Positions 1 through 51,366 of a stretch of 64,000 nucleotides of DNA are shown here, one piece after another. The notes beneath the pieces are model-generated. The model ran no database searches and had not been told where the DNA came from. It saw only the letters and a program-made list of their open reading frames with translations. Made by a program: the position numbers and the translations under genes. How positions within the stretch are numbered: position 1 is the first letter of the stretch; every line of letters begins with the position of its first letter. Source of the stretch: Shigella virus Moo19; the sequence record MZ358387; one strand, written 5' to 3'.

Positions 1-215
1 TGATGGTGACGATGTGATTCTTGCTGTACCCCGCCCAGTGGCTAGTGGCGGGACCGATTAACTAAAGGGCTTTCCACCTCCTTACCCGTTTAGCTAAAGG
101 CTAATAACTACCACAGTCAGGGTTCCTCGGCTCCTTTGACTTAAGACTGCAATCTTAAGTTTAACGGTACATAAGTACCTAGAGGGATGAACTGACCCGA
201 TACTGAAGTCGGTCA

Positions 216-252
216 GGGGCATAGTCGAGAGGCTATGCCCCATTTCTTTTTA
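216..252 (+). terminator. Stem-loop (9-bp stem ggggcatag/ctatgcccc, 8-nt loop) followed by T-rich tract, just upstream of first ORF
   Basis: Inverted repeat read directly; atttcttttta follows. Confidence 0.4.
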
Positions 253-263
253 TAGGAGCTATC

Positions 264-674
264 ATGGACATCTACGGTCTTGATATAGAAACACAGACAC
301 AAAAGAAAGAAGCTGACCCATACGTGATAGGTTCAGCTCAGTTCTTCGCCACCATCTTTGGTAACAAACACGCTATCCTTCTCCCAGATTGTGAAGAATC
401 CCACGAACTAGTAGGTTGCTGGCTGTTAGACAACATCCCACTAACCACTCGTATCATGAAGCAAGGTGAGACTATCATCTACAATCTGGAAGACTATGGA
501 ATACAAGAGGATGGTCAGTACACATGGATGCCACCTACTTACTTTATTCCACTGCCTGACTGGGAACTCATAGCTTCTCACGACGTATTCAAAAGGCAGA
601 TTGCTATCTACTTCCGTCCACGCCCTACCTGGAGAAAGAATCCATATGCAAGTCCAATTAATCTGTCGCAGTGA
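264..674 (+). CDS. Hypothetical early protein, member A of tandem small-ORF paralog family (SHELVGCWLL motif)
   Basis: ORF track; aggag RBS at 255-259; shares H-E-(V/L/F)-x-G-x-L-L motif with downstream ORFs. Confidence 0.4.
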   Translation: MDIYGLDIETQTQKKEADPYVIGSAQFFATIFGNKHAILLPDCEESHELVGCWLLDNIPLTTRIMKQGETIIYNLEDYGIQEDGQYTWMPPTYFIPLPDWELIASHDVFKRQIAIYFRPRPTWRKNPYASPINLSQ

Positions 675-1011
675 TAAAGATTCTGATGTAGTAAACGCAT
701 TAGAAATTCCATTCGACTTCTTTAGTCATGAGCTACACCTGAGCCAAGTAATCCTGGTTCCCTCCCTTGAGCATTATCATGAAGTTCAGGGGCAACTGTT
801 AATCAATGGTGTGACTGCTAAAGTAATCTGCATTCTTCCACCATCCCAATATCAGCCACCAGTTGGAAGTGTTCCTTATGCACTAGTCACTGATGACTAC
901 GTTGCTAAGTGTGACCCACTGCCTAATGTTGGTAAGTACAACGATACTTTAAATCTTACTTATTATTTCGAGAAGAAAGATGCAGCTACAACTAACGAGG
1001 TTCATGAGTAA
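646..1011 (+). CDS. Hypothetical early protein, paralog family member B (YHEVQGQLLINGVTAKV)
   Basis: ORF track 601-1011; first in-frame ATG beyond most of the overlap with upstream ORF is 646. Confidence 0.4.
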   Translation: MQVQLICRSDKDSDVVNALEIPFDFFSHELHLSQVILVPSLEHYHEVQGQLLINGVTAKVICILPPSQYQPPVGSVPYALVTDDYVAKCDPLPNVGKYNDTLNLTYYFEKKDAATTNEVHE

Positions 1012-1288
1012 CCCTCATAACTTATCTCTAGTGCACCCGGACGCAGAACCTTATCTATTAAGTGACGTTGGTTATGTACTCAGCGGTGAGTCCAAAGTCG
1101 TTATGCTTACCAGTGAGTCAGCTAACCTATTCCTCGTTGAGTGCATGATGCGGGGTGTCAATGCTGATATCACCCTCAAGGAACCAGGTGAGAAAGTATA
1201 TGGTGGCCTGCTCTGCTACTTAATACATAGTCCGCATGAGTATCCTGACTACGATAATGATGGTTATGTCTGGATAAGGAGGCCGTAA
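1004..1288 (+). CDS. Hypothetical early protein, paralog family member C (ends WIRRP)
   Basis: ORF track 980-1288; ATG 1004 overlaps upstream stop (ATGAGTAA). Confidence 0.45.
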   Translation: MSNPHNLSLVHPDAEPYLLSDVGYVLSGESKVVMLTSESANLFLVECMMRGVNADITLKEPGEKVYGGLLCYLIHSPHEYPDYDNDGYVWIRRP

Positions 1289-1563
1289 TGTTTGCCTATT
1301 TTGTACGCTCTACTTACGATGCCTACCACGGTATGCTATCCATCAAGTTAGAAGTAGGGCAACACTGGCCTACTTTTGAACCAGGAACAGCAGCTATTTG
1401 GGTTCATCCTGACATAGACTTTCATGAAGTACAGGGTGACCTGTTACTTCGGGGTAAGACAGCTAAGCTGATGGAATGTCCTCCGAACTATCGAATAAAA
1501 GAGAGTGGCATATTCATCCTGGCTCATAGTTACAGTAATGCACTGGAGTTACTGCGTCCATGA
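1288..1563 (+). CDS. Hypothetical early protein, paralog family member D (FHEVQGDLLLRGKTAKL, ends LLRP)
   Basis: ORF track; start overlaps upstream stop (TAATG). Confidence 0.5.
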   Translation: MFAYFVRSTYDAYHGMLSIKLEVGQHWPTFEPGTAAIWVHPDIDFHEVQGDLLLRGKTAKLMECPPNYRIKESGIFILAHSYSNALELLRP

Positions 1564-1922
1564 ATCTCTTCCTAATACCCCCTATGTCCTGTAATCCGCT
1601 TAAGCTGGTGGGCGAACAACCTACCTGGGATAGACTTGGCGTAACTAAAGAGACTGTCCTGTATGAACCAAGTGAAGAAGCACACGAGTTCATTGGTCAC
1701 TGTCTCATGATAAGTAGTGAAATACAGTTCAAGTCTCTTGCTGAACCAGTAGAAGTAAGGGAACAGGATAAGGTTTATGTAATAGGGCATCACTATCCTG
1801 ATGTATGCACCACCTTACAGGGCAGGCTTATCAGGCTTACTGATGAGAGTACCTGCATCCAGTGTACCTGCTATCACCCCTGCCCTTCTTCAAAGAAGGT
1901 TATCTACCCACTGGATATCTAA
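1560..1922 (+). CDS. Hypothetical early protein, paralog family member E (AHEFIGHCLM), Cys-rich C-terminus
   Basis: ORF track; ATGA overlap with upstream gene. Confidence 0.45.
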   Translation: MNLFLIPPMSCNPLKLVGEQPTWDRLGVTKETVLYEPSEEAHEFIGHCLMISSEIQFKSLAEPVEVREQDKVYVIGHHYPDVCTTLQGRLIRLTDESTCIQCTCYHPCPSSKKVIYPLDI

Positions 1923-2210
1923 ATGAATCTTACTAAGATACACGTTACTCCTACTAAGATGGTTAACTGTCCTATAACTAAAAAGTTATTTACTGTATCC
2001 AGTGACATACTCATTCTTGTACCAGACCTGGATAGCTTTCATGAAGTGAAAGGACAGGAGATGTTACTCAATAAGAAATGGGAAGTTCATCTACTTGAAC
2101 CAGGAAAGGAACTTAGGTGGCTGGGTATGTACAGTCCCTGGCATCTTAATACGGATAGCTACCGTCTTACCTTTACTGACCATATTGCTGTATATACTCC
2201 ACGCCCCTAG
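1923..2210 (+). CDS. Hypothetical early protein, paralog family member F (FHEVKGQEMLL, ends YTPRP)
   Basis: ORF track; tttcatgaagt nucleotide motif shared with members B and D. Confidence 0.5.
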   Translation: MNLTKIHVTPTKMVNCPITKKLFTVSSDILILVPDLDSFHEVKGQEMLLNKKWEVHLLEPGKELRWLGMYSPWHLNTDSYRLTFTDHIAVYTPRP

Positions 2211-2245
2211 CTCCTCAAACATAACTGCTTATAAAGAGTAACCTC

Positions 2246-2434
2246 ATGGATAATATTGCATTAAAAAACTACCGTACTGCTATTCAAGCCATAGAGCTTA
2301 TTAAAGCAGAGGTAGAAGTAACCTTTGGGTTACACGTAGGAACAGACCCAGAACCAGAAATAATGGTGGAAGCTTATAACATTGTTCTGGCTATACGTGC
2401 AGGTTATAACAGGCTATGCGAAGCATCTAAATAG
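2246..2434 (+). CDS. Hypothetical small protein (62 aa)
   Basis: ORF track only. Confidence 0.3.
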   Translation: MDNIALKNYRTAIQAIELIKAEVEVTFGLHVGTDPEPEIMVEAYNIVLAIRAGYNRLCEASK

Positions 2435-2480
2435 GAGGTATATAATTACCCTCTATCTAATATTTTTGCATGTCAAAATG

Positions 2481-2593
2481 GTGATAGCTACTTGTGATAG
2501 CTGTGGTGTGGCAGGGGCTACACCCTTACACGTTAACTACCCCCCCGGTATGTTGACTCATGGGTGTACTACCCTACCCCACCTTACACGTTA
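2481..2593. repeat. Intergenic direct repeats: gtgatagct x2 (2481, 2494) and ccttacacgtta x2 (2524, 2582), plus repeated ctaccc runs
   Basis: Read directly from sequence. Confidence 0.6.
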
Positions 2594-2595
2594 CA

Positions 2596-2608
2596 CATGC
2601 TCCGCATG
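2596..2608 (+). promoter_or_regulatory. Tri-loop hairpin catgc-TCC-gcatg (bottom strand GC-GGA-GC); candidate N4-type vRNAP early promoter hairpin
   Basis: Perfect 5-bp stem, 3-nt loop; same core as hairpins at 3584 and 7442; upstream of ORF 2652. Confidence 0.35.
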
Positions 2609-2651
2609 GTATGGACATGTCGTCCTTATCATTAACTATTGGAGCTATACA

Positions 2652-2972
2652 ATGACTACTACTGCTAACGTACGTATGACTGCTGGAACTTTACTGGGTA
2701 CTGTAAATGAAGCAGCTACTACTATTGCTGATACCTTTGGTACTGCAACTAAAGCTGTTGGTATGCTGAACTCATATGTCACTACTATGAGTGAGAAACA
2801 ACGTATTCGTACTAAATTGGAAATGCATACATTTACCAATAAATTAGCTGAAGAAACAGCTATGCAAGATACTATCCGTAAGAAAGCTATCGTAGAATTC
2901 TGCAAAGATGAAAAGAATGCTGAACTCTATAAAGCATCTTACGATGATGTAATGGCACTGTTATCTAAATAG
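2652..2972 (+). CDS. Hypothetical protein (106 aa)
   Basis: ORF track frame 2382-2972; ATG 2652 has ggag RBS 8 nt upstream; upstream part of track ORF is repeat-rich intergenic DNA. Confidence 0.4.
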   Translation: MTTTANVRMTAGTLLGTVNEAATTIADTFGTATKAVGMLNSYVTTMSEKQRIRTKLEMHTFTNKLAEETAMQDTIRKKAIVEFCKDEKNAELYKASYDDVMALLSK

Positions 2973-2981
2973 TAAAATAAC

Positions 2982-3010
2982 GGAAGACTCCTTGGAGTCT
3001 TCCTGTTTTA
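2982..3010 (+). terminator. Rho-independent terminator (9-bp stem ggaagactc/gagtcttcc, loop cttg, then tgtttta)
   Basis: Read directly. Confidence 0.6.
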
Positions 3011-3013
3011 AAG

Positions 3014-3032
3014 ATTAGATAGTCAATCTAAT
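3014..3032. promoter_or_regulatory. Palindrome attagat-agtca-atctaat containing 14-mer ttagatagtcaatc (second copy at 3529-3542)
   Basis: 7-bp inverted repeat read directly; lies just after a terminator and upstream of ORF 3063. Confidence 0.4.
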
Positions 3033-3062
3033 TTGAATAAATAGTTAAAAGAGAATCCTACT

Positions 3063-3209
3063 ATGAGCAAACTAAAAAACGCATTTATCCTGATTGTCAG
3101 TATCCTTGCACTTGTTACTTTGGTTTCCGTTCACATTGGAAAACCTCTGGTAAACACTGACTATGGTAATGGTCAAAAAGTAAAATCCATCCTGTTAGCG
3201 GATAAGTAA
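3063..3209 (+). CDS. Small putative membrane protein (48 aa, MSKLKNAFILIVSILALVTLVSV...)
   Basis: Hand-translated; hydrophobic N-terminal segment; below the 60-aa cutoff of the ORF track. Confidence 0.3.
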   Translation: MSKLKNAFILIVSILALVTLVSVHIGKPLVNTDYGNGQKVKSILLADK

Positions 3210-3276
3210 AAACCGCATCTAGAAACTGGGCTGTTCCACAGCTTACGGATACATTTCAACCAATTAGGAGGCATCC

Positions 3277-3492
3277 ATGAACGTAGAAAATATCCGTATA
3301 ATTGAGAATTGCTTTGGTGATAAACCAGTAGACCTCAGCAACGCAAGAAGGTCTACAGATGAAGAATACAGAGAGTTTTTATCCTTACTCGATGAATATC
3401 ATATGCAAGGGCATGTTGAATTACATGCCCATCTGCATAACTCAGGCTACTTCATGGATAAACTGGAAGCTGAGACAGGCTGTCCATTCTAA
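3277..3492 (+). CDS. Hypothetical protein (71 aa)
   Basis: ORF track; strong RBS aggagg upstream. Confidence 0.45.
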   Translation: MNVENIRIIENCFGDKPVDLSNARRSTDEEYREFLSLLDEYHMQGHVELHAHLHNSGYFMDKLEAETGCPF

Positions 3493-3499
3493 GTAAAGC

Positions 3500-3526
3500 A
3501 TTCCCTCTTAGGAGGGAATTAGCCAT
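3500..3526 (+). terminator. Terminator-like hairpin (attccctc-ttag-gagggaat)
   Basis: 8-bp inverted repeat read directly; weak T tract. Confidence 0.4.
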
Positions 3527-5912: not shown

Positions 5913-6223
5913 CTACCATCGTAGTATTGCATGACACCACATTCAAAGATGTGGATAAGATGATGAACAATATAGACTATGTTGCTCAGCATTCTAAAGC
6001 ATTCAATGGGGAGTTCACTATTTATTGTGAACCAGAATCTCCATTGGCTCCTGTATTAAAAGAAGCAGGGCTTCCGTTCAGTACTACTGACTTCCCAGAA
6101 GAACCTGACTTCGTTATCTCATTCATCTACGATTTACACGACGGTTCTAAAGCCAGTGAACTGGCAATGAACCAGTGGAAGTCTCGCCGTCCTGTATGGC
6201 CTTTCCAGGTACTGAAACCATGA
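5909..6223 (+). CDS. Hypothetical protein (104 aa)
   Basis: ORF track; ATGA overlaps with neighbours. Confidence 0.4.
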   Translation: MTTIVVLHDTTFKDVDKMMNNIDYVAQHSKAFNGEFTIYCEPESPLAPVLKEAGLPFSTTDFPEEPDFVISFIYDLHDGSKASELAMNQWKSRRPVWPFQVLKP

Positions 6224-38176: not shown

Positions 38177-38599
38177 ATGGAACTCGAACAAAAGATTAAA
38201 GAAGCTGGTGCTGATAAAGCTCCACGTATTACCCCTGACCATATCCAGAGCAAAGTAATTGCTAAGCACTTCTTCACAGCATTAGATGGTGCATCCACTC
38301 AGATGCGTAGCGAAGATAAGTTCTCGAACCAGGAAGTACAGTCACTGTCTCTACTGACTTTCTGTGTACTGGTTCTGGAGAATGGCTTTACTGTTACTGG
38401 TGAGTCTGCCTGTGCATCCCCGGAAAATTTCAATGAGGAAATTGGACGTAAGATTGCCTATGACAATGCAATCGATAAAGTCTGGTTGCTGGAAGGTTAC
38501 CTGCTTAAGCAGAATCTCCATGAGCAAGCTCAGAGCCAGGAAATGCTGAAGGGTTTTCTGGAAAACAATGAATGTGAGGGTGGGGGCTGTAAAATATAA
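38177..38599 (+). CDS. Conserved phage protein (N4 gp49 / Phage_gp49_66-like)
   Basis: Motif NGFTVTGESACASPENFNEEIGRKIAYDNA recalled as characteristic of this family; immediately precedes vRNAP gene as in N4. Confidence 0.45.
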   Translation: MELEQKIKEAGADKAPRITPDHIQSKVIAKHFFTALDGASTQMRSEDKFSNQEVQSLSLLTFCVLVLENGFTVTGESACASPENFNEEIGRKIAYDNAIDKVWLLEGYLLKQNLHEQAQSQEMLKGFLENNECEGGGCKI

Positions 38600-38835
38600 T
38601 GTCGTTAACTGAAATCATCCGAAATTCTATTATCGAAACGGATACCCGTGGCAAAGCCTTTGACTTTATTCAACGCGAAGCAGGTGTACCCCGTATCGTA
38701 GCTAAGAGACTACTGTTCTCTTTCCTCTGGTTCCCTACTGAGGAAACACTCCAGAAGATTAAAGATAGTGGTGGTGATGATTTACCTGCCGATATCAAAA
38801 GCAACCTGGAAAGTGCAGTAGCAGCAAAGCTGTAA
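38599..38835 (+). CDS. Hypothetical protein (78 aa)
   Basis: ORF track. Confidence 0.4.
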   Translation: MSLTEIIRNSIIETDTRGKAFDFIQREAGVPRIVAKRLLFSFLWFPTEETLQKIKDSGGDDLPADIKSNLESAVAAKL

Positions 38836-38840
38836 AAATT

Positions 38841-38872
38841 AAAGCCCCTCTAATGAGGGGCTTTTTTATTTT
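38841..38872. terminator. Bidirectional terminator (aaagcccctc-taat-gaggggctt flanked by A-run and T-run) between convergent + and - transcription units
   Basis: Read directly; T/A tracts on both sides. Confidence 0.7.
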
Positions 38873-41800
38873 AGTTTACCAGATTCATCCAAGGGTTGAG
38901 GTTATGAGCACGTAAGCCCTGACCCAATCCGATAGAGTAATCCAGTCTACCATCAGCAGCAGCCGAGAACAGGTTATCCTGTAATGGCAGACCAACGTTA
39001 CCAAACATGGTAGGAGTTGGAGCCAGCATAGCCATAGCTGCATGAACAGGGTTATTACGAATCATGGACACTGCAACTTTAGTAGAACGAATCTTAAAGT
39101 TATAGAACCACATCAGACCCATGCTTTCCATGTAACCACGGAAACGACCCGGCAGACGGTCATAGTTAATGAACTCTTCGGTAACACGACCCAGAGCTTC
39201 TTCCTTACTCTTACCTTTACGCTTAGTCAGTTCATCATAGATGATTGCTTTAGCAATAAAGTCAGAGTACTCAACCGTCTTCTGGATACCCTGGAACAGA
39301 GCAGTATCCTTAGTGATAAGTGCATAACGACCAGCAGTTTGCAGCTTCTTAGGCAGCTTATCTGCTAAACGCTGCATGTACTCCTGTACCTTACCATCCG
39401 GGATTAACAGGTCATCACGAGAGATACCAGCATCAGCAATAGAAGAGAACTCACCAGCTTCCAGCAAAGGCCAGATACTCATACGCTTATAGCTATCATT
39501 GATGGACTGAATCTCAGCTTTCAGTTTACGAGCCTGGTTCGGATTAGTAGTTGCACGAAGTTCTGCTTCAGCATCAACCTGGCGAAGACGAGACTTCATA
39601 TACTGGTTAATCTCAGCAGTCTTCTGAGGGATACCTTTAGCAATATCCTTAACTGGAACACCACGGGCAACCATCTGATAGAGGTTAGCCAGGAAGTTCA
39701 CAGCAGGAACCACGAGAGACTTGACCACGATTAAGGTCTTAGCCTCACGTACAACCGTCTGAGTGATATTCTCACCCTGCATAAAGTATTTGTATGCACG
39801 GTTGCCAAATACGCCCAGCATTGCTTTCTTGAAGGTATCCAAAGTCTCAGGTGACCAACGAGAGTTACCAGTCCATACATCACCAACAGAAGCAGCACGA
39901 TAACCAAGTGCATCATTCAACATGTCACGACGTACCCACAGTTCACCATTACCAAACAGTGACTCAGCTTTCTGACGAGTTTCTGCATTCATCAGACGCA
40001 TAGCATCAGCAGTAACTGGGTCAAGTTTAGAACCAAGAAGGTTAATGTACTGGCTCTTATTGCTGGTAGAATCTGCCATGTCCTTCTCGTACATAGCGTG
40101 AAGATTTTCAATCAGAGCATCGTTAAACTTCTGGGCTTTAGCTTCTTCTACCTGACGACCTCGCCATACACCAATTGCTTTAGCAAGGTTATCCTCACCA
40201 GCAATGTGAGTCAGCATGTTAGGGTCAATAGAGTGCTCATAAGCAACCACACGACCATTGCCATCATAGATAGGCATCAGTGGTTCATTACCACGTTCAC
40301 CCTTCGCCAGAGCTTTGGTGATACGGTCAACGGAAGGCTTGTCAGTAATACGACCAGCAACCATTGTTCCCATTGTGAAGCCAGTACCAACATCCACACC
40401 ACCAGCAGTATTACGAACGTTCTGGAGAATACCCTGTGAGTATGGAGCACGAGCAGCAACCGGGCTGAAGTAGTAACCACGACTACGAGTACGTTCACCA
40501 GAGCTACCCTGATAACCAGCAATACGAGTGAATGACTTCTCACTCAGTTCGTTAAACTGGCTGTCTTCTGCAACAATCAGGTTAACACCCTGCTTAGTCT
40601 CAGAAGGAATGTAGCCTTTGTAGTGGTTCAAACGAGCACGGTCATCATTCTGTGCTTTACGTTTCTCTTCCACACGCTGGCCTACCAGATAGGAAGTGAC
40701 AAAGTCCATACCTTCGGTTTCAGTCTGAGCCAGGGAAGCTAATGCCTCACGGTCAGCCTGACTCATTGCTTCGATGGCATACAGAGTAATCAGCTTGTCT
40801 AAGGTGTCCACATCAACGGTAGATTTAACGCTGGTACGCTCACCTAACAGACGGGAGATTGCCTCAGCATTACGCAGCAGGTTGTTACCGACAGTACCAT
40901 TAATCATGTACTGAGCCAGTTGCTTAGACTTACGGTTAATCAAAGGCCAGTTACGTCCTGCCTGATTCTGGAGGTCAGCTTCCAGCTTATTAACCAGCTT
41001 ATCCATTTCTTTCTGTGAAGACAGCAGGTCACGAATTTCACCCAGACTCATGGTGTCACGCAGTACAGCAAGGTCAGTTTTACCCATACCAGTGTGCATA
41101 GCTTTCCACTCTGCATCAGTCAGCTTACGGCTGAACTTAGAAGCAATAGTGGTAGGCAGATGCTCACGGAATTGCTGACGGTCAGCCTGTACCTGAGAGC
41201 GAACAGCTTTAATCATGTCATAGACAGAAGCATTCGACTTAGTACGACCTACGATGTCATTAACCAGGTCATAGAAAGGTTGCCATGCTTTTCCCTGGTT
41301 CATTGCAGCCATAACACCCTGTGCAACTTTCTCACCGTTCTTCTCAGTAGCAATAGCAGCTACCAATTGAGCAGCATGAGCAGTTGCCTTAACCAGTGGG
41401 TTCTTAGCATTAGCAGCAACATCACGAGCAGTATCCAGTGTGGCATCAGCCAGACGTTCTACACCATCAACAATATATTGGTTAGCACGGTCAATCATAT
41501 TCCCAGTTGGGGTAGCAACAGAGTCATAGAAGGACTGAGCATTCAGGCTGGATTCCATAATAGTTTCTGCCAGAGCATCAATACCTTCCTGAACGTTAGT
41601 TGCTTTGGTATCACCAGCAACACGCTTGTTCAGGCTATCCATTGCAGCTACGCCAATGTTAGTCAGCATTGCATCAATAGTATTACCGGATGCTTTATCT
41701 GCTTTCATAACAGGCATGTCAGTCAGTACGTTACGTACCTCTTCGCTTACCATTGCCAGACCAACAAAGGTAGGCAGTAAGGAAGAACGACCCTGAGCAT

Positions 41801-44800
41801 CAAACTCAATATTGTTAGCACCCATCAACGTATCGAACTTCTGTTGAGCATAGTAACGGTCAGCAGGGTTAGTGCTGTTCGGGTCTGCCATGAAGTCTTC
41901 TACTTTCAGGTTCTTGGTAACGTGAGTGTAATACTCCTGAGCACGAGCCAGAGCAGCAGGATGAATTGCAGCCTCAGTTGCTAGTGCAGCAACAATGTTG
42001 GTGAACAGACGACGTTCTTGCATGTTCATAGTAAAACCATGCCCCTGAACATCACGAGTTACCTTAACTGCATTCACTACTGCGTCAGAGAATTTACCCT
42101 TACGCATATGTTGCTGTACCGGGTCATTACCCAGGTAGTTCGTAATGAGACGGTCAAAGGTTTGACCCAGTGAAGTAAGACGGTCATTGTTGCCATAAGC
42201 AGTGCTATGGAACAGGGTAGCCTCAGCAGTAACCGGAGCAACCGGAGGCTGTGAACGCATCACTACAGCAGAGTTAAACAGCAGACCGGAGAACATATCT
42301 TCACCGTAAGCAGGGGCTTTCTTACGACCAAAAATGAGGCGTTTAATTGCTTCATAAACATCTTTAACCATCCTGGTAAGAGCAGTGGTTTTCTTCTGCT
42401 TCTTAATCAGTTCATGGTTGGTTAAGCCCCATGCCATGTACTCATTCAGTGCAGCAGCTTTAGCCATTGCTGGGTCAATGAAACCGTTGGACAGATGACC
42501 ATTGATAGTATCCAGTGCATCAGCGTAAGCCTCACGCATAGCCGGAGTATCTTTGGATACATCCAGACTACGGAACTGTTCCATCAGATTCTCGATGTTC
42601 TGTACAGCTTCATTGGTCTGGCCTTGATAGTGGTCAAGTACAGTCTCAAAAGTAGAAGCATGAACCAGTTCATGAATCAAGGTTTCCATTGATGGGCTAA
42701 CCAGGTAGACAGTCTTATCTGCAAAGTTAGTCCAACCATAGATATTACCTGCATTTGCAGCTTCAATATCTTCTGGAGCAGGACGCTCTACGTTACGTTC
42801 CATTGCATACTGGTCAATCTGGTTCACGTTACCGTAAACAACCTTGTAGCCTTTAGCAGCCAGTGACTTCTGAATCTCATTCAGTACAGCAGCCTGTTCA
42901 ACAGGAAGGTTGGACTCTTTAGCCAGTTTGTTAATAGCAGTCTGAGACAGCACACGAACACCAGACTTCAGAGCACGGCCTACAGTATCAAACTTATTAG
43001 TATCGGCTACTGGAGTCTTCTCAGCTTTACGAGCCTCTTTACGAGCCTGCAATTCAGCATCGAATAGCTCATTCAGTTTTGCTACTTGCTGGTCAACAGT
43101 CAGACCATCCAGAGAGATATTACCGTTGTTCACATAAGGGGAACCAACAGCAGCCATCTGGTCAACAGTAGTCTGTACCTGGTTCATTACCTTGTGACGG
43201 ATATCGACACCCAGAGCAATGTTACGCAGGTTACGCTCAATAAGATTAACACCTGCTTTCTCAATCATATCAATCTTATACTGCCTGTCACCATCAACAC
43301 GACTGATATGAGAAAGTTGTTCAAAATCCAAAGCAGAACGGGCAATACTATCAATTGCTTCATCTGATAACTTATTGAAATCTACATTTTTTACAAACTT
43401 AGAGAAGGAGTCATACACATTCTTGATAGGGTTACCCTGCCATGAAGTGTATACAGCTTCGTTAGCCTTACGGCTTGCATCAGTGATGTCATTGATACCG
43501 ATGTTCATACCATCAAAGATTTTGAGAGTATTTTTCGGTGCACCTTTCATAATAGAAAGGGTCTGCATCATCATGCCGTCACCAGTACCAATCGTCATGA
43601 AAGGAATACCAGCAACACCAGCTTGTGACGGTGCATAGATGCTCATTGGCACACGCATACGGTCATCAAAGTTGGTAGCCAGAACCTGGTTAGCAACATC
43701 AGTATTCTCAGAACCAGCAATGTAGAAAGTCTGGGAACCAGTCTCAATCATTGGAGCTAAGTCAGACAGTGAAGCCTGAATATCGTTAAGCTCTTTCTGA
43801 GTTAAGAAGTCACCCTTCTTCCAGTTAGGGTCTTTTTCTTTTTCTGCCAGCTTCTCCTGGACACGTTGCTGGAACATGTCTTGCAGAACCAGAGACTGAA
43901 TCTGGGTAGCTTTCTGAAGCTGTTCAGTGGAGTGCATCAGCCCTTCACCAACAGTATTCTGAATACCCTGTCTCATTGGTTCAACGAAAAAGTGCAGCAT
44001 GTTCTCTTGCAGAGACTTCAGTTGCTCACCTTTGACAGTGAACTTCTGAGGGTCAATCTTGCCAGACATAGCAGTACCAGTGTCTTCAAGAGACAGTTTA
44101 CCTTTACGCATAACTGGAACAGTACCAGTCAATGCTTTCATGTCTTCAATGAAACGACCGAGCATAGCCTCAGCATCGGCCTCAGATGCTGCCTGCTTGC
44201 CGAACATTGCCATAGCCGGGGAAATGTCCGGGTTCTGTGCACGGGCTTGCAGAACGTCGCTGAAGCGTTCGTAGATGGCATCAGTAATTGCACTCACCAT
44301 CTTGCCTGCAATACCACGAGCACCGGAACCATAAATGGTAATGGTCAGTGGGTTCTTGGCAATGCCACGTTTCAGTTCGAGGTTGCCTTCTTCATTGATG
44401 TTATAGTCAGGAATGAACAAGTCCATCAGAGAGGACAGATGATTCATCTGAGTATTAACAGCCGGGTTATTGGCATAGGTATTTCGCAGGTTAGTCAGTG
44501 CAGCTTTCAGACCGTTAGTGGATGCTTCGTACAGGTCAACGCTATCGTCAATAGAACGATGTTCGTTCATCGTCTTACCAGCACGACCAAAGAATAGACC
44601 ACCCTTAGCAGTATTCTGTACCCATTCTTTGGTGAACTTACCACCAGTCATCAGCATCATTGCGTTAATCGGACCGTTGGTTACACCATCAGCCTCAACG
44701 TACAGTGGAGTGTTGAACTTAGACTTGTCTTCAGCATTCAGGTAACGGGCATACTCCATCAGAGCCATGAGAGCTACGAAGGATTTATCACCACCCAATG

Positions 44801-47800
44801 CAGTATTCAGAATCTCAACAGAGTTATCTGGCAGGTTCCCAGTTTTATCGAAATCAACCATCATATCGACAGCAGGTTTCAAATTGCCTTCCAGTGCAGC
44901 AGTCAGTTTTGCTGACATTGCCTCACGAGACATGTTGTGAACCTTGATGCCCAATGCCTGAGCCAAGCCAACCTGGAAATCAGAGAAGGTCTGTGAGTTT
45001 TCATTGGACAGGTCAATAGTAGAAAACGTAGGCAGAATAGCTTCACGAACCAGCTTACTGGACTGAGGATTATTCTTACCAAGCATCTGCATACGACCAA
45101 CACGAGTCATGTTGTAGGCATAGTGGATTGGAGTTTCCAGTCCGTTTTCCTGTGCACGAGTTTGCTCTACCACACTAAACAAGGAATCATAAGCCATAGC
45201 TACTGACAGGTTTTTACCTTCCAGTGACTTAGCAGTATTCACATTCAGCAGTTCAGGATTAAGCGTACCAGCACCCATCAATTCCAGAATCTTGTCACGA
45301 CCCATAGCCTCATAGAAGTTAACCATAGGTTCATGAATACGGAACTCAGTAGCCTGTTCTGCTTTCAGAGCAGCTTTCTGTTCCGGGGTATTCTTAACAG
45401 CAGGGTTGCGTAACTGAGTCTGAGCCACAGAAGGTACGTCGTCACCGAAGTACATTTTCTCTTCTGGTTCTACCAACACAGCTTCTTCAATTGCTGTAGG
45501 GAATTTATTGATAGGGTCATTGTCTGCCAGCTTATCAATGGTATACAGACCAACAGTCTTAGTGGAGTCTGGGTCAATTTCAGAGACATCTAGCATAGTC
45601 TCAGTAACTTCACCTGCTTCAATAAGAGCAGACAGAATCTCAGTTGCCATAGCAACAGGGATACCTTTGGTATAACCCAGTGGTGCATTAGGGTTACGGT
45701 CAAAGCCCCAGTAAGATTCAATTTTCTGAGCCAGTGAGTTAGTAGCTTCAACGAGAGTCTGAGCATTCTCAAACATCTCAACTACACCTTCCGGTAACAG
45801 AGCCTGTTCAATACCAGTAATAGCAGCCACGTCTTTAGCATCTTTAACGGCAGCATTCTGAGTAGCAGTCAGTCGCCATTGCAGACCAGCAAGTACGGCA
45901 GTTTCAAGCAGAGAATCGTTGAACTTAAAGCTATTGCCATCTGGTTCAACAATATTCAGCAGCTTACCACCAACCCAACGGTTAGCTTCAGTGCCCTCAG
46001 CAAAACGCTTACCTACGTTCTTGTTAGACAGGAACTTAGCCAGTCGGTCATTCAGAATGGATTTAATGTTTTCACCCGTGTTCATCAGGTCTTTATAACG
46101 ACCAGATACATCAGGGGTAAGAGCAGTATTCTCACTCTGAGTAAACGTTTCGAAACGTGCATTAGAAGACAGAGCCTGACCAATATCTTTCATTGGAGAC
46201 TCGGAACCAGTGGTACGAGACTTAGGTTCAGCAGGTAATGAGTAAGCAATCTTGAGGTAATTTTTTACCCCAGGCTGGCTGACATCAGTACTCCCAACCA
46301 AATCAGGATAAGCAGCGTCAATACCACTACGAGTGGATTCCACTTCATTAGTAGTTTCCTCAGTATTTTCAGTAACATCCTCGATGCTACCCTCATTGAT
46401 GAGGGTAGCATCCTTTGCCTTTTCGGATTGAGGCTTAGTTACTTTCTCTGGTTCTGCCTTAGACTCAGTAAAAGGAGCACTATTTTCTACCGTCGATTCC
46501 CTATTAGGAGTTACAGTAGGTGCAGCCTCCTGAGTTTGTGCAGGAGTTTCGTCAACTTGATTCACTGGTTCATTAGTCTGTTGGGATTGAGCAGCGTCAA
46601 GATTGCCCTGACGGAACTCTTTAACCACCTGGGCAGCAGGCTTGTCCAGACGTGAATCCAATGAGGTAACATTGATATGAGAAACGTTAAGCTCCGGGTA
46701 AGCCGTAGCAAGTGCATTAGCAATATCAGCTACGGTTTTGGCTTCCAGTCCTACTTGCTGGGCAAACTTAACCGACTTGGTATCGTAAGGATTAACACCG
46801 AGTCCAGTACGACTTCTTACCCATTCACGGGAAGGGGTGAGGGCTTGGTAATGGACAGACTTATTCTTATCCGCATTCCCAGAAATCAGATGTTCATTCA
46901 ACGCTCCGACCTTGTTCTGCATGTGCTGGGCGAACTGCATAAAGTCGCTCAAATAAGCGGAAGCCAAATCGAAGTTACCAGAGTTATACGCAGACCGAAT
47001 GCGTTTAGCATGTTGCAACGCAGAGTACTGGCCTTCATTAGAACGAGACTCGTCGGTTTTAATCTGTTTACCCACAATGTCTTGAGGCCGTAAACCAAGC
47101 TGTTCAGCTTTGGTATCAAACTCACGTGCTCCCTGTAATAGAGCAGCAGCGGATTGCAGGGCAGCACGTTGACGATTGTTCAACGTAATCTTGCCTTCAC
47201 TCGCATGTTTCAGAACCATGTTCACTGAATCAGCGTCCAGTACTTCCGGGCTTACGTCAGCAGCCATTGCTACGTTGTTAGCCTGATTCTGGTCTGCTAC
47301 ATCTTCGGTCACATTCAGATTACCTTGTTCAGCTTGTTCCTGAATCATGGAATGAATGGCACGGAATGCACGAAGTACCTTTGGAGTATTCTGGATGTTA
47401 GCCATCAGACCCGAATACTGGTCGAGCACAGCATTAGCAGGACTATCTTTAGGCAGATTGTTCAGTGCAGCAGGGTCACGGTTAACGAAGTCTTCCATCT
47501 GCATAACCATGTCGTACATATTGGCAGCAGCTTCCATCATCTGGTTCGGGTCTTCAGTAGTGTTAACTACATCAGCCAGTTTCTGGATTACCTGAACTCG
47601 GTCAGTGGAACCGTTAACAGCTTCCTGAACCACAGGAGAAGCATCAGCAAATTCTTCCGGGTTAATACGGGTAGCATTAACCAAATCACTTGCATACTGG
47701 TGTGCAGCAGCCTTCTCTTCAGGAGAGATGTCCATTGCTTCAACAGCATCAGCCATAGTTGCCTGAGCAGTATCTGCTTGTGCAGCAGCTTCCTGAGCAG

Positions 47801-49310
47801 CCTCAGCTACTTTAGCGTCAGCAACAGGAGAAGCCTCTTCATTGCGTCGTGCAACTTCTTCACCACGTTGAACCAGGATATTGGTAATAGGTGAAGCAGC
47901 TTTAGCTACGACATTACCAGCAGCGTTAAGACCAGCCAGGGTAGTACGCAGAGCAGGACCAGCAGCAGCACTTGCAGCTTTAACAGCAGAGCCAGGAGCT
48001 TGAGCAACTCCAGCAGAGCCGAAGCCATAGAGTGCACCCAGACCAGCTTGCTCACCCACACCTTTGAGTGTGTCACGGGTAGCATCAACGTTACTCCGAA
48101 TTGCACGGTTCTGTGCATACTGACCAGTACCAGACTGAATACCTTCTTCCACAGTCTCACGAAGCATGTTGGAACCAGCACCAGCAAGTGAACCTACTTT
48201 CAGTGGATTCAGTTCAAACTTGGATACCAGTGGACCCGTTGCAGCAGCAACCGGAGCAGTGATAGCAGCAGCATCAATACCTGTTTCAGAAGCAGTCTGA
48301 CGACGAGCTTCATCTGGAGAAAGACCATCTTTGATATGTTGCTGATAAACAGGAGACTTAGCAGCCAGTTCTTCATGAGACATTTTCATAATCTCAGAAG
48401 CAGTTTGCTGATAAGCACCACCAGCTTCCATTGTGCCAATAGCAATGGCAGCAGGAGCAACCTTAGAGGCAGCATTAACCAACTGTGCAGGACGATGGCC
48501 TAATTCAGCAGCAAGTGCAATTGCACGAGCAGCTTTTTCACCACCCATTACAGCACGACCTAATGCAGCAACCCCTTTAATAAGAGGACCACCCGTAAAC
48601 AGTGAGCCTACTCCTTCGCTCAATCCATCTGTTGCAGCCATACCAGTGTCAAGAGTGTTGGCAACAGAATCATAAGCGTCACGGCCAATACGAGAAAGAG
48701 AAGCGACCAAATCACTCTCGCCATCTTTAATATCCTGTTCGTATAAACGCTGGTTTTTCTGAGCAGATAGCTGGTTCTGGTTCTGAACTACTTTACGGGA
48801 AAGATTTAAAGCATCAGACTGAAGACCATGAACACCTTCATTCAACCAGTCCATGCCACTAGCTATGGTAGCACCAGCATTATCGTTGATAAGACCTGTT
48901 CCAAGAGAAGCAATGCCCCCAAGGGTATTAGCAACACCAAGACCAACACCAGAAAGAGAATCACCAATTGCTTCTGCATTCGTTCTCTCTCTGGATAAGT
49001 CCTGACGAACAGAATCGGCTGCATTAGCACGGCTATTAAGAATACGAAGACCTTCTTCGGTTCCATACTTAGCAATAAGTTCCATTGGGGAGGCTTGAGT
49101 AAAATCAGCCTGAAGTGAACCTGGTTCGAATGCACCAATGCCGAGATTACCTACCCGACCTGTTTGAAGGTTATAGGCAGTATCTGGGGTGAGTTGGAAA
49201 GGGTTATACCCTTCAGCAGCTTGCTTCTGGGAGGTTGCAGTAGAGACATCGACTTGCTTAGCATTAGTGATGCTGTCTGCGAAACCTGCCAGTCTGTCAA
49301 ATGTTGACAT
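38871..49310 (-). CDS. Virion-encapsidated giant RNA polymerase (N4 vRNAP gp50-like), ~3479 aa
   Basis: Size; T7-like motifs in central part (YVEADGVTNG; RGIAKNPLTITIYGSG; KIFDGMNIG), the two Asp 392 residues apart; ATG 49310 has aggaaa RBS (track start 49352 is GTG). Confidence 0.85.
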   Translation of the reverse strand: MSTFDRLAGFADSITNAKQVDVSTATSQKQAAEGYNPFQLTPDTAYNLQTGRVGNLGIGAFEPGSLQADFTQASPMELIAKYGTEEGLRILNSRANAADSVRQDLSRERTNAEAIGDSLSGVGLGVANTLGGIASLGTGLINDNAGATIASGMDWLNEGVHGLQSDALNLSRKVVQNQNQLSAQKNQRLYEQDIKDGESDLVASLSRIGRDAYDSVANTLDTGMAATDGLSEGVGSLFTGGPLIKGVAALGRAVMGGEKAARAIALAAELGHRPAQLVNAASKVAPAAIAIGTMEAGGAYQQTASEIMKMSHEELAAKSPVYQQHIKDGLSPDEARRQTASETGIDAAAITAPVAAATGPLVSKFELNPLKVGSLAGAGSNMLRETVEEGIQSGTGQYAQNRAIRSNVDATRDTLKGVGEQAGLGALYGFGSAGVAQAPGSAVKAASAAAGPALRTTLAGLNAAGNVVAKAASPITNILVQRGEEVARRNEEASPVADAKVAEAAQEAAAQADTAQATMADAVEAMDISPEEKAAAHQYASDLVNATRINPEEFADASPVVQEAVNGSTDRVQVIQKLADVVNTTEDPNQMMEAAANMYDMVMQMEDFVNRDPAALNNLPKDSPANAVLDQYSGLMANIQNTPKVLRAFRAIHSMIQEQAEQGNLNVTEDVADQNQANNVAMAADVSPEVLDADSVNMVLKHASEGKITLNNRQRAALQSAAALLQGAREFDTKAEQLGLRPQDIVGKQIKTDESRSNEGQYSALQHAKRIRSAYNSGNFDLASAYLSDFMQFAQHMQNKVGALNEHLISGNADKNKSVHYQALTPSREWVRSRTGLGVNPYDTKSVKFAQQVGLEAKTVADIANALATAYPELNVSHINVTSLDSRLDKPAAQVVKEFRQGNLDAAQSQQTNEPVNQVDETPAQTQEAAPTVTPNRESTVENSAPFTESKAEPEKVTKPQSEKAKDATLINEGSIEDVTENTEETTNEVESTRSGIDAAYPDLVGSTDVSQPGVKNYLKIAYSLPAEPKSRTTGSESPMKDIGQALSSNARFETFTQSENTALTPDVSGRYKDLMNTGENIKSILNDRLAKFLSNKNVGKRFAEGTEANRWVGGKLLNIVEPDGNSFKFNDSLLETAVLAGLQWRLTATQNAAVKDAKDVAAITGIEQALLPEGVVEMFENAQTLVEATNSLAQKIESYWGFDRNPNAPLGYTKGIPVAMATEILSALIEAGEVTETMLDVSEIDPDSTKTVGLYTIDKLADNDPINKFPTAIEEAVLVEPEEKMYFGDDVPSVAQTQLRNPAVKNTPEQKAALKAEQATEFRIHEPMVNFYEAMGRDKILELMGAGTLNPELLNVNTAKSLEGKNLSVAMAYDSLFSVVEQTRAQENGLETPIHYAYNMTRVGRMQMLGKNNPQSSKLVREAILPTFSTIDLSNENSQTFSDFQVGLAQALGIKVHNMSREAMSAKLTAALEGNLKPAVDMMVDFDKTGNLPDNSVEILNTALGGDKSFVALMALMEYARYLNAEDKSKFNTPLYVEADGVTNGPINAMMLMTGGKFTKEWVQNTAKGGLFFGRAGKTMNEHRSIDDSVDLYEASTNGLKAALTNLRNTYANNPAVNTQMNHLSSLMDLFIPDYNINEEGNLELKRGIAKNPLTITIYGSGARGIAGKMVSAITDAIYERFSDVLQARAQNPDISPAMAMFGKQAASEADAEAMLGRFIEDMKALTGTVPVMRKGKLSLEDTGTAMSGKIDPQKFTVKGEQLKSLQENMLHFFVEPMRQGIQNTVGEGLMHSTEQLQKATQIQSLVLQDMFQQRVQEKLAEKEKDPNWKKGDFLTQKELNDIQASLSDLAPMIETGSQTFYIAGSENTDVANQVLATNFDDRMRVPMSIYAPSQAGVAGIPFMTIGTGDGMMMQTLSIMKGAPKNTLKIFDGMNIGINDITDASRKANEAVYTSWQGNPIKNVYDSFSKFVKNVDFNKLSDEAIDSIARSALDFEQLSHISRVDGDRQYKIDMIEKAGVNLIERNLRNIALGVDIRHKVMNQVQTTVDQMAAVGSPYVNNGNISLDGLTVDQQVAKLNELFDAELQARKEARKAEKTPVADTNKFDTVGRALKSGVRVLSQTAINKLAKESNLPVEQAAVLNEIQKSLAAKGYKVVYGNVNQIDQYAMERNVERPAPEDIEAANAGNIYGWTNFADKTVYLVSPSMETLIHELVHASTFETVLDHYQGQTNEAVQNIENLMEQFRSLDVSKDTPAMREAYADALDTINGHLSNGFIDPAMAKAAALNEYMAWGLTNHELIKKQKKTTALTRMVKDVYEAIKRLIFGRKKAPAYGEDMFSGLLFNSAVVMRSQPPVAPVTAEATLFHSTAYGNNDRLTSLGQTFDRLITNYLGNDPVQQHMRKGKFSDAVVNAVKVTRDVQGHGFTMNMQERRLFTNIVAALATEAAIHPAALARAQEYYTHVTKNLKVEDFMADPNSTNPADRYYAQQKFDTLMGANNIEFDAQGRSSLLPTFVGLAMVSEEVRNVLTDMPVMKADKASGNTIDAMLTNIGVAAMDSLNKRVAGDTKATNVQEGIDALAETIMESSLNAQSFYDSVATPTGNMIDRANQYIVDGVERLADATLDTARDVAANAKNPLVKATAHAAQLVAAIATEKNGEKVAQGVMAAMNQGKAWQPFYDLVNDIVGRTKSNASVYDMIKAVRSQVQADRQQFREHLPTTIASKFSRKLTDAEWKAMHTGMGKTDLAVLRDTMSLGEIRDLLSSQKEMDKLVNKLEADLQNQAGRNWPLINRKSKQLAQYMINGTVGNNLLRNAEAISRLLGERTSVKSTVDVDTLDKLITLYAIEAMSQADREALASLAQTETEGMDFVTSYLVGQRVEEKRKAQNDDRARLNHYKGYIPSETKQGVNLIVAEDSQFNELSEKSFTRIAGYQGSSGERTRSRGYYFSPVAARAPYSQGILQNVRNTAGGVDVGTGFTMGTMVAGRITDKPSVDRITKALAKGERGNEPLMPIYDGNGRVVAYEHSIDPNMLTHIAGEDNLAKAIGVWRGRQVEEAKAQKFNDALIENLHAMYEKDMADSTSNKSQYINLLGSKLDPVTADAMRLMNAETRQKAESLFGNGELWVRRDMLNDALGYRAASVGDVWTGNSRWSPETLDTFKKAMLGVFGNRAYKYFMQGENITQTVVREAKTLIVVKSLVVPAVNFLANLYQMVARGVPVKDIAKGIPQKTAEINQYMKSRLRQVDAEAELRATTNPNQARKLKAEIQSINDSYKRMSIWPLLEAGEFSSIADAGISRDDLLIPDGKVQEYMQRLADKLPKKLQTAGRYALITKDTALFQGIQKTVEYSDFIAKAIIYDELTKRKGKSKEEALGRVTEEFINYDRLPGRFRGYMESMGLMWFYNFKIRSTKVAVSMIRNNPVHAAMAMLAPTPTMFGNVGLPLQDNLFSAAADGRLDYSIGLGQGLRAHNLNPWMNLVN

Positions 49311-49372
49311 AGCTTGTTTCCTGTTCAAACTTATATCTATAAGAGAACTCACTGTACATTAAGTGAGGGTAA

Positions 49373-49398
49373 GAAAAAAGCCCCGAAGGGCTTTTATA
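49373..49398 (-). terminator. Terminator between upstream virion gene and vRNAP gene (hairpin aagccc-cgaa-gggctt; U-run on - strand)
   Basis: Read directly. Confidence 0.55.
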
Positions 49399-49401
49399 GT
49401 A

Positions 49402-51366
49402 TTACTGATTTTGTCTTGGTTGCATATACTCTGGCAACCCTTGTGCTTGTCTCATATATCGAGCAGCACGCTCTCTGTTTTCTTTCTCAACTGCCCGGTC
49501 TACGGAAGCCTGAGATTGAAAGTTTCTCGGAGCCAGATTCTGTGGGTCAGCTTGAACCTGTCCTTGTGCAGCTTGCAACATTGCAGCAGCTTTCTGTACT
49601 GCTTCCTGACGTGATGGAAGCAACGCAGTGAGTGCAGTCTGACCTGTAGCAATCTTATTCTGAGTGTTATTGAGTTGAGCAACAGCAGCGTCATAAGCTG
49701 TCTGTGCAGCCTGGATATTTTGAATAGCCTGAGCATTACCCAGATTACGAACACTTGCTTCCAGTGGTTCACCACGCTTCAATCCCTCAACCATCTGGTC
49801 TACAGCACGGTCATTAAGACGCAAGCCATTACCAGCTTCATTACTAATGAATGGGTTTAGTGCATCAATACCACGACTAATATAGCCTTCCGGTACGTTG
49901 GTCATTGCACGTTGAATAACGTTAGCAGCCATCGCCGGGGACACATTAGCACGTTGACTAATATCATTGATACGAGCCACAACCCAATTCTTATCAGCAC
50001 CCTTAAAGTCACCTTCCAGAAGTTTGGAAGCAACTTCACCTACAGTAGAGGTGTCATTCAGAGAACGTAAATAATCAGGGGTAATACCACCTGCATTATT
50101 CTCCATCAGACGAGTACCAATCATACCAGAAGCAAGAGTAGATACAGCCTGATTACCCTGAGCATCCTGAACCAGAGCAAGAGGATTAGCTCCTACTTCA
50201 GCCTGAGCAATCACAGGTTTAATCTGTTCCCAGGTCATATCTTTGTAAGCACCTGGAGAAGAGTTAGGCAGAGCAGCCCAGGTATCTTTCAAGTTGCCAT
50301 TCTTACGAGCTTCAAAGATAGCCTTACCAATCTTCTCCTGATTCTCAGCAGACATTGGCTGACTAGCCCAGTTATCTCCCAGTACTTTAGGTGCAAAGTC
50401 CTGAAGAGTAGCCTGATTAATCTGGAATGCACCAACAGGGGAAGCACCCAGATTAGTCTTCATACCATCCTGATGTTTGACCACATCACCAATGCTCATC
50501 TGAGTAATTGGAGTAGAGGTTGGGGTAAAACCATACGTTGTATCATATGGAGAACCAGCACGAGTACCAGCAGTTCCTGGGGCAGAAGGAGCACCAACCC
50601 CATTGCCATAGACACCTGGGTAAGCCTGAGCAAGTAAACCTTGCAGACGAGCCTGAGCTACTGGGGACAGTTGCTTACTATATGCCTCAGCCAGGATACG
50701 AGCATCGTTGGGGTTCTCAGCACCACGAGTAATCTGAGACATAACACCCATAGCAGCCTGAGCATCAGCATCATTACGCATCTGAGTACCCAAGTTGAAA
50801 CGAGATTGGTTGTTACCAATACCACCCCGTTCCTGACCTTGCAGACGACCCATAATATCAAGAGCCTGGTCAGCAGGAAGAGTAGACAGAGCATCCCCTA
50901 CCTGACTTTGTGCAGCCTGAATCTGTTTAGGGTCACCAGACTGGTAAGCCATAGCCAGTTGACGAACAGCAGGGGAAGCAGCATCCATTGCAGCGTCAGT
51001 AGTCTTAAGACGACCAAAACGGTAATCATTATAGGCATTAGTCCCAGCCTGACCTTCCTGGTTCAACAGAGTGCCAGCACGGTTATCCAGATTTTCCAGA
51101 GTACGGGTACTAATCAGATTGGGGTCAACACCCTCAAACAGAGCACCAGATGCCAGAGCATTACGGTACGCTGTAGGGTCTTGATAACGCATAGCGTTCA
51201 TCATGACAGCACTGCCAGCATCCTGACGAGCAGCGTTCTGGAAGTTACCCAGTGCATCACTCAAGCCAGTAGTGGCATTACCAATCATGTTGCCAAATGT
51301 GCGAATGCTATCACCAACTCCAGAGAAGTTAGGTGTATCAACATTACGCCAAGTAATTTGAGCCAT
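49402..51366 (-). CDS. Virion structural protein (N4 gp51 position), Gly/Ala/Gln-rich
   Basis: ORF track; aggaaa RBS; late-operon position. Confidence 0.5.
   Translation of the reverse strand: MAQITWRNVDTPNFSGVGDSIRTFGNMIGNATTGLSDALGNFQNAARQDAGSAVMMNAMRYQDPTAYRNALASGALFEGVDPNLISTRTLENLDNRAGTLLNQEGQAGTNAYNDYRFGRLKTTDAAMDAASPAVRQLAMAYQSGDPKQIQAAQSQVGDALSTLPADQALDIMGRLQGQERGGIGNNQSRFNLGTQMRNDADAQAAMGVMSQITRGAENPNDARILAEAYSKQLSPVAQARLQGLLAQAYPGVYGNGVGAPSAPGTAGTRAGSPYDTTYGFTPTSTPITQMSIGDVVKHQDGMKTNLGASPVGAFQINQATLQDFAPKVLGDNWASQPMSAENQEKIGKAIFEARKNGNLKDTWAALPNSSPGAYKDMTWEQIKPVIAQAEVGANPLALVQDAQGNQAVSTLASGMIGTRLMENNAGGITPDYLRSLNDTSTVGEVASKLLEGDFKGADKNWVVARINDISQRANVSPAMAANVIQRAMTNVPEGYISRGIDALNPFISNEAGNGLRLNDRAVDQMVEGLKRGEPLEASVRNLGNAQAIQNIQAAQTAYDAAVAQLNNTQNKIATGQTALTALLPSRQEAVQKAAAMLQAAQGQVQADPQNLAPRNFQSQASVDRAVEKENRERAARYMRQAQGLPEYMQPRQNQ

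Follow-up and report, generated by a model that had tools for sequence, protein, structure and literature searches.

Gene and product

The window analysed here, a stretch of 64,000 nt from Shigella virus Moo19 (sequence record MZ358387), carries on its minus strand a giant gene that almost certainly encodes the virion RNA polymerase (vRNAP) of the phage. The open reading frame (ORF) 38871..49352 (−) is present and comprises 3493 codons if counted from its first start codon, GTG 49352; counted from ATG 49310, it yields a product of 3479 residues with a calculated mass of 378.3 kDa. An exact-sequence look-up matched this ATG-started product, from the first to the last residue, to YP_010657789.1/UEN68863.1, the protein gp67 of Moo19. 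The Moo19 paper gives this protein a mass of 378 kDa, reports its detection by mass spectrometry in virions purified on CsCl and puts its identity to the N4 polymerase at 67.1% (PMC11654681). RefSeq and this 2024 paper already record the gene together with its start codon, its presence in virions and its resemblance to N4.

A phmmer comparison of the ATG-started protein with all PDB sequences aligned residues 1–3478 with residues 1–3499 of the 3500-residue coliphage N4 vRNAP (E = 0). The PDB matches comprise the full-length N4 "Virion DNA-directed RNA polymerase" (11GP, 9PNQ, 9PNR and others) and the mini-vRNAP crystal structures 2PO4, 3C2P and 3Q0A. Global alignment by MAFFT with N4 gp50 (YP_950528.1, from NC_008720) gave 67.4% identity over the whole protein, with only short insertions and deletions (indels). 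Four vRNAP-specific Pfam domain types (helical domain, dom_2, dom and plug insertion) are present, with PF21894 (9.8e-99), PF21867 (6.8e-55), PF21769 (4.8e-51) and the plug PF21624 (8e-28) all scoring far over the cut-offs. An earlier note on this DNA, made by a model from the letters alone, had taken the ORF for an N4 vRNAP-type protein and named alignment with N4 gp50 as a check; homology extends over the whole length, residue 1 to residue 1, and together with the complete set of Pfam domain types it bears this assignment out.

It is therefore nearly certain that the product is the single-subunit, DNA-dependent RNA polymerase that an N4-like phage (Schitoviridae, Enquatrovirinae) carries inside its virion, a cysteine-free protein of 378 kDa translated from ATG 49310. 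When the phage collection was searched with the gene, no record was more than 95% identical; the nearest records are G7C-like Gamaleyavirus phages, at ~80–81%. The absence of cysteine from all 3479 residues contrasts with a cysteine content of ~1.0% among the remaining long ORFs of the window, and lack of cysteine is a noted peculiarity of the N4 vRNAP (PMC2784036). Among relatives, the vRNAPs of N4, SP5M and Jgk1 contain none and those of Bas96 and P0002 one each, so the property is not absolute.

The protein is divided into an N-terminal domain (NTD), a polymerase domain and a C-terminal domain (CTD), connected by linkers (Table 1). In N4, the NTD has been linked to association with the membrane and to the early phase of genome injection (PMC13492108), and the CTD is needed for encapsidation and autoinhibits the polymerase domain (PMC13434306, PMC13492108). 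The low-complexity linker 1 has likewise been described for the N4 vRNAP (PMC13434306). From its identity to the N4 domain, the polymerase domain is predicted to be a T7-like right-hand RNA polymerase that includes a plug module as well as a motif B loop.

Predicted catalytic and promoter-reading residues

The protein contains a single copy each of YVEADGVTNG and KIFDGMNIG. Their aspartates, proposed in the earlier note as catalytic candidates 392 residues apart, in agreement with the spacing of D559 and D951 in the N4 mini-vRNAP, are residues 1555 and 1947 in the numbering from GTG and 1541 and 1933 in the numbering from ATG, so the count of 392 is exact. In local alignments without gaps, the two residues fall on positions 559 and 951 of 2PO4_A, which correspond to D1556 and D1948 of full-length N4 vRNAP. 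The global alignment contains no indel between them, and the spacing is 392 in the Moo19 and N4 proteins alike.

The catalytic residues of N4 vRNAP are R424 (T/DxxGR motif), D559 (motif A), K670 and Y678 (motif B) and D951 (motif C) (PMC2784036, citing Kazmierczak et al. 2002), while R119 and W129 recognise the guanine at −11 in the hairpin promoter (PMC13492108). The Moo19 equivalents of all seven functional residues tested are kept (7/7), each in an 11-residue context identical to that of N4. By analogy with N4, we infer that D1541 of motif A and D1933 of motif C are the ligands of the catalytic Mg2+ ions.

Translation start

ATG 49310 is codon 15 of the maximal ORF and is preceded by ...AACAGGAAACAAGCT, which includes an AGGAAA Shine–Dalgarno (SD)-like element. 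The predicted pairing with the 3′ end of 16S rRNA amounts to −4.3 kcal/mol for ATG 49310, −1.0 kcal/mol for TTG 49328 and +0.9 kcal/mol for GTG 49352. The last of these is the first start codon past an in-frame TAA, and the 22 nt upstream of it (TCTTACCCTCACTTAATGTACA) contain no SD-like sequence. Both details agree with the earlier note, which had considered the ATG the likelier start on account of its ribosome-binding site (RBS) and had found none at the GTG.

Comparison with relatives carries more of the argument. Residue 1 counted from ATG 49310 aligns with residue 1 of N4 gp50 (MSTFDRLAGFADS vs MSVFDRLAGFADS), and the vRNAPs of N4, Bas96, SP5M and Jgk1 all start MS(T/V)FDRLAGF. The 14 codons upstream vary by indels among these phages: in N4, a TGA in frame comes directly after the position equivalent to the GTG; in Jgk1, the nearest relative within the phage collection, the stretch differs in length by 1 nt and holds a TGA in frame upstream of the ATG; in Bas96 and SP5M, GTA replaces GTG, and a 2-nt indel is accompanied by a TAG in frame. 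Hardly any change is seen in the block ATAGATATAAGTTTGAACAGGAAAC (49340-49316), third-codon positions included, whereas the coding sequence just past the ATG has synonymous changes; such a pattern is typical of regulatory rather than coding sequence. From these comparisons, and in accordance with the RefSeq protein of 3479 residues, we conclude that ATG 49310 is the translation start. The choice corrects the maximal ORF only, as the public annotation already uses this ATG.

Two points call for caution over the ATG, although there is no real evidence against it. Around 20% of the 20-mers within the vRNAP gene also reach −4 kcal/mol in anti-SD pairing, so the RBS alone is modest evidence of a start, and we rejected its strength as sufficient proof. 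In addition, an in-frame TTG (49328) lies inside the ATAGATATAAGTTTGAACAGGAAAC block and is common to all five phages compared. Translation from this codon, six codons before the ATG, would agree with the retention in all five of the TTG together with the in-frame codons that follow, yet we consider it very improbable: the conserved AGGAAA is located downstream of the TTG and so cannot serve it, the pairing upstream of it is only −1.0 kcal/mol, the invariance of the surrounding block at third-codon positions points to non-coding regulatory sequence, and all deposited annotations examined use the ATG.

Less probable still is translation of the maximal ORF from GTG 49352, giving 3493 residues with a 14-residue N-terminal extension. 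Its position as the first start codon past the in-frame stop speaks for it, and the extension would add 1.6 kDa to ~380 kDa, a difference that a gel could not resolve. However, besides the missing SD sequence and the unfavourable pairing (+0.9 kcal/mol), this GTG lies within a small hairpin, in its 3′ arm, and the extension is broken by in-frame stops or indels in N4, Bas96, SP5M and Jgk1. The N4 protein and that of P0002, a relative at least 90% identical, both begin MS(V/T)FDRLAGF.

Predicted early promoters and the probable left genome end

A strand-aware hairpin scan found three predicted cognate promoters of the vRNAP near the left end of the window (Table 1). At each of them, a TCC motif places a template C at +1 (~2613, 3247 and 3603), 11 nt from the loop centre, a geometry that is exactly that of N4 P2. 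Two of the three have flanks homologous to those of N4 P1 and P2, and their stems differ from the N4 stems by compensatory changes. Matches to the hairpin pattern number only three in the 64 kb, where shuffles lead one to expect 0.045, and all three lie within 1 kb of one strand; as these very sites helped to define the pattern, the statistic is generous. We infer that the three hairpins are N4-type early promoters used by the vRNAP.

Another candidate, on the plus strand at 6058-6074, came from a search with the N4 P2 sequence (3 mismatches). It was rejected as a chance match: it lies on the wrong strand for rightward early transcription, has no conserved flank, and 14% of shuffles match as well.

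Similarity to G7C-like genomes begins at about window position 2460-2510, which aligns with G7C coordinate 1, including the terminal repeat. The physical left genome end is probably located there, and window 1-2450 would then represent the right end of a permuted assembly.

With these promoters and the intact motifs in view, the idea that the protein is kept solely as a structural or ejection component with degenerate polymerase activity has a negligible probability, since it can draw only on the two thirds of the protein formed by the NTD and CTD, which have non-catalytic roles in N4, and has nothing else specific in its favour, whereas conservation is highest in the polymerase domain (73% identity), none of the seven functional residues tested has changed, nor have the motifs around them, and predicted cognate hairpin promoters are present in the Moo19 genome.

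Table 1. Features of the vRNAP locus and predicted early promoters of Moo19 (window coordinates; residues numbered from ATG 49310)
Feature	Coordinates	Strand	Remarks
vRNAP coding sequence	38871..49310	−	3479 aa + TAA stop at 38871-38873; Shigella virus Moo19 gp67
NTD	46605..49310	−	Residues 1-902 = N4 1-906; 62% identity to N4
Low-complexity linker 1 (NTD to polymerase domain)	46329..46604	−	Residues 903-994 = N4 907-1006; 35% identity to N4; hypervariable, indel-prone
Polymerase domain	43020..46328	−	Residues 995-2097 = N4 mini-vRNAP 1007-2103; 73% identity; 2PO4, 3C2P, 3Q0A at E = 0
CTD	38874..42986	−	Residues 2109-3479 = N4 2123-3500; 70% identity to N4
Promoter −11 base readers R1102 and W1112	45975..46007	−	Mini-vRNAP R119 and W129; from alignment
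T/DxxGR-motif Arg R1406	45093..45095	−	Mini-vRNAP R424; from alignment
Motif A catalytic Asp D1541	44688..44690	−	N4 D1556/mini-vRNAP D559; context LYVEADGVTNG same as N4
Motif B Lys K1652 (codon 44357-44355) and Tyr Y1660 (codon 44333-44331)	44331..44357	−	K670 and Y678; context KRGIAKNPLTITIYGSGAR same as N4
Motif C catalytic Asp D1933	43512..43514	−	N4 D1948/mini-vRNAP D951; context TLKIFDGMNIG same as N4
AGGAAA SD-like element	49317..49322	−	AGGA core 8 nt before ATG 49310; invariant in N4, Bas96, SP5M, Jgk1
14-codon upstream extension from GTG 49352	49311..49352	−	Rejected as coding; 5′ leader/regulatory region; not conserved, no SD
Terminator-like hairpin	49371..49395	−	AAAAGCCC-TTCG-GGGCTTTT, then T-run; between gp51 homologue and vRNAP gene; read from sequence; nearly invariant in N4, Bas96, SP5M, Jgk1
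Bidirectional intrinsic terminator	38841..38864		Between vRNAP gene and convergent plus-strand genes; 10-bp stem, 6 G-C pairs, T-runs on both strands
Three predicted cognate hairpin promoters	2608-2596, 3242-3230, 3600-3584	− (template for rightward transcription)	5-7 bp stem, GGA loop; strand-aware hairpin scan

Linker 1 and its palindrome

Linker 1 is a hotspot at which close relatives vary in length, their proteins having between 3441 and 3599 residues. The Bas96 vRNAP has an insertion of well over 100 residues in this linker, where SP5M and Jgk1 have deletions.

Within the Moo19 linker, codons 967-976 (DATLINEGSI) are spanned by a perfect 30-nt palindrome at 46383-46412, GATGCTACCCTCAT-CA-ATGAGGGTAGCATC (minus strand), with 14-nt arms and 2 nt between them. 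Folded as RNA it reaches −24.7 kcal/mol (z-score −5.15). Quasi-palindromes (10/14) already occupy the orthologous site in N4 and Bas96, and each of the four substitutions between Moo19 and Bas96 in this 30-mer raises complementarity, three of them being non-synonymous. The relative P0002 lacks the segment, and SP5M and Jgk1 have lost it by deletion; on these grounds we rejected the palindrome as a conserved element. It probably arose by quasi-palindrome "correction", that is, template switching in the indel-prone linker. A functional nucleic-acid element, such as a ribosome-pausing mRNA hairpin between the NTD and the polymerase domain, a DNA cruciform or a protein-binding site, seems improbable to us.

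Flanking elements and neighbouring genes

The intergenic region 49316-49395 upstream of the vRNAP gene has a layout that is kept in N4, Bas96, SP5M and Jgk1: the strong hairpin (49395-49371), a variable stretch of ~25 nt and then the invariant ATAGATATAAGTTTGAACAGGAAAC. The variable stretch holds a small hairpin at 49367-49348. The automatic terminator scan did not list the hairpin at 49371..49395. A sigma-70 promoter scan revealed nothing convincing directly upstream of the vRNAP gene, and the conserved GATATAAGT block may be the −10-like element of an N4-type late promoter. We speculate that the low copy number of the vRNAP could be determined by a partial terminator combined with a late-promoter or leader element behind it.

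The ORFs upstream of the vRNAP gene on the same strand encode homologues of N4 gp51 (51% identity), gp52 (59%) and gp53 (54%), so that synteny with N4 is preserved. N4 gp51 and gp52 are ejection proteins, which build a complex in the outer membrane and a tunnel through the periplasm by which the vRNAP is released; gp51 was assigned to the outer-membrane complex in a 2026 study (PMC13434306). Its Moo19 counterpart, gp68 (ORF 49402-51366 (−), 654 aa), aligns with N4 gp51 over the full length. This protein is listed as "Adaptor, 70 kDa" in Table 1 of the Moo19 paper (PMC11654681), and SP5M annotates its homologue as a "lysozyme containing protein". A Pfam search of gp68 returned no domain.

On the other side, the terminator matching 38841..38864 is also annotated in SP5M. 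ORF 38177-38599 (+), convergent with the vRNAP gene, encodes 140 residues with the Pfam domain PF13876 (N4 Gp49/Sf6 gene 66 family), and its best BLAST match is N4 gp48 (55%). The following ORF 38599-38835 (78 aa) has no N4 or Pfam match.

Comparison with known polymerases

Moo19 vRNAP resembles N4 gp50 in being colinear and cysteine-free, in its three-domain layout, in its catalytic and promoter-reading residues and in the spacing of 392 between motifs A and C. The two genes also share the gp51–gp53 neighbours and the terminator hairpin and leader block upstream. Unlike N4 gp50, with which it is 67% identical, the Moo19 protein is 21 residues shorter; it has a 10-residue insertion near residue 1999 and an 8-residue deletion in linker 2, and its linker 1 is at 35% identity. 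The Gamaleyavirus (G7C-like) vRNAPs of Bas96, SP5M and Jgk1 are closer, with ~81% protein and DNA identity, the same N-terminus MSTFDRLAGFADSITNAKQ and the same gene context; they differ by indels in linker 1 and by length, and the perfect palindrome is found in none of the three.

T7-like RNA polymerases (T7 RNA polymerase and the mitochondrial enzyme) and the N4 mini-vRNAP share the right-hand fold, the T/DxxGR, A, B and C motifs and two-metal catalysis by the aspartates of motifs A and C (PMC2784036, PMC13492108). Unlike them, the vRNAP needs a DNA hairpin promoter, is autoinhibited through a plug and the motif B loop, possesses ~2400 extra residues and is packaged and ejected (PMC13492108). 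A single-sequence phmmer search of the PDB with the polymerase domain retrieved, at E ≤ 10, N4 vRNAP chains only and no T7 RNA polymerase. Because such a search misses the T7 enzyme, the relationship is drawn from the solved N4 structures and from published work on the motifs. The predicted T7-like fold of the Moo19 polymerase domain follows from its 73% identity to the solved N4 polymerase domain.

Proposed mode of action

The mechanism of this family is already well described, including full-length cryo-electron microscopy structures published in 2026, and the catalysis, promoter use, ejection and autoinhibition of the Moo19 enzyme are pictured here on the model of N4. A few copies of the vRNAP would be packaged into the capsid via the CTD (PMC13434306, PMC13492108), which would keep the polymerase autoinhibited through the plug and the motif B loop. 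On infection, the protein, with its three loosely linked parts arranged like beads on a string, may pass out through the tail channel, accompanied by the gp51 and gp52 homologues. The NTD would then act in membrane association and aid early genome entry. Finally, the polymerase domain would transcribe the early genes at the left genome end from hairpin promoters extruded from supercoiled DNA, with the aspartates of motifs A and C binding the catalytic metals.

Implications

A reader limited to the sequence had recognised the vRNAP, chosen the right start codon and placed the catalytic aspartates correctly, and the value of this agreement lies mainly in quality control. The mapping of residues D1541/D1933, R1406, K1652, Y1660, R1102 and W1112 is new for Moo19, as are the three predicted early promoters. 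Promoters and residue map together have some small practical value, since they could guide mutagenesis or in vitro transcription with Moo19.

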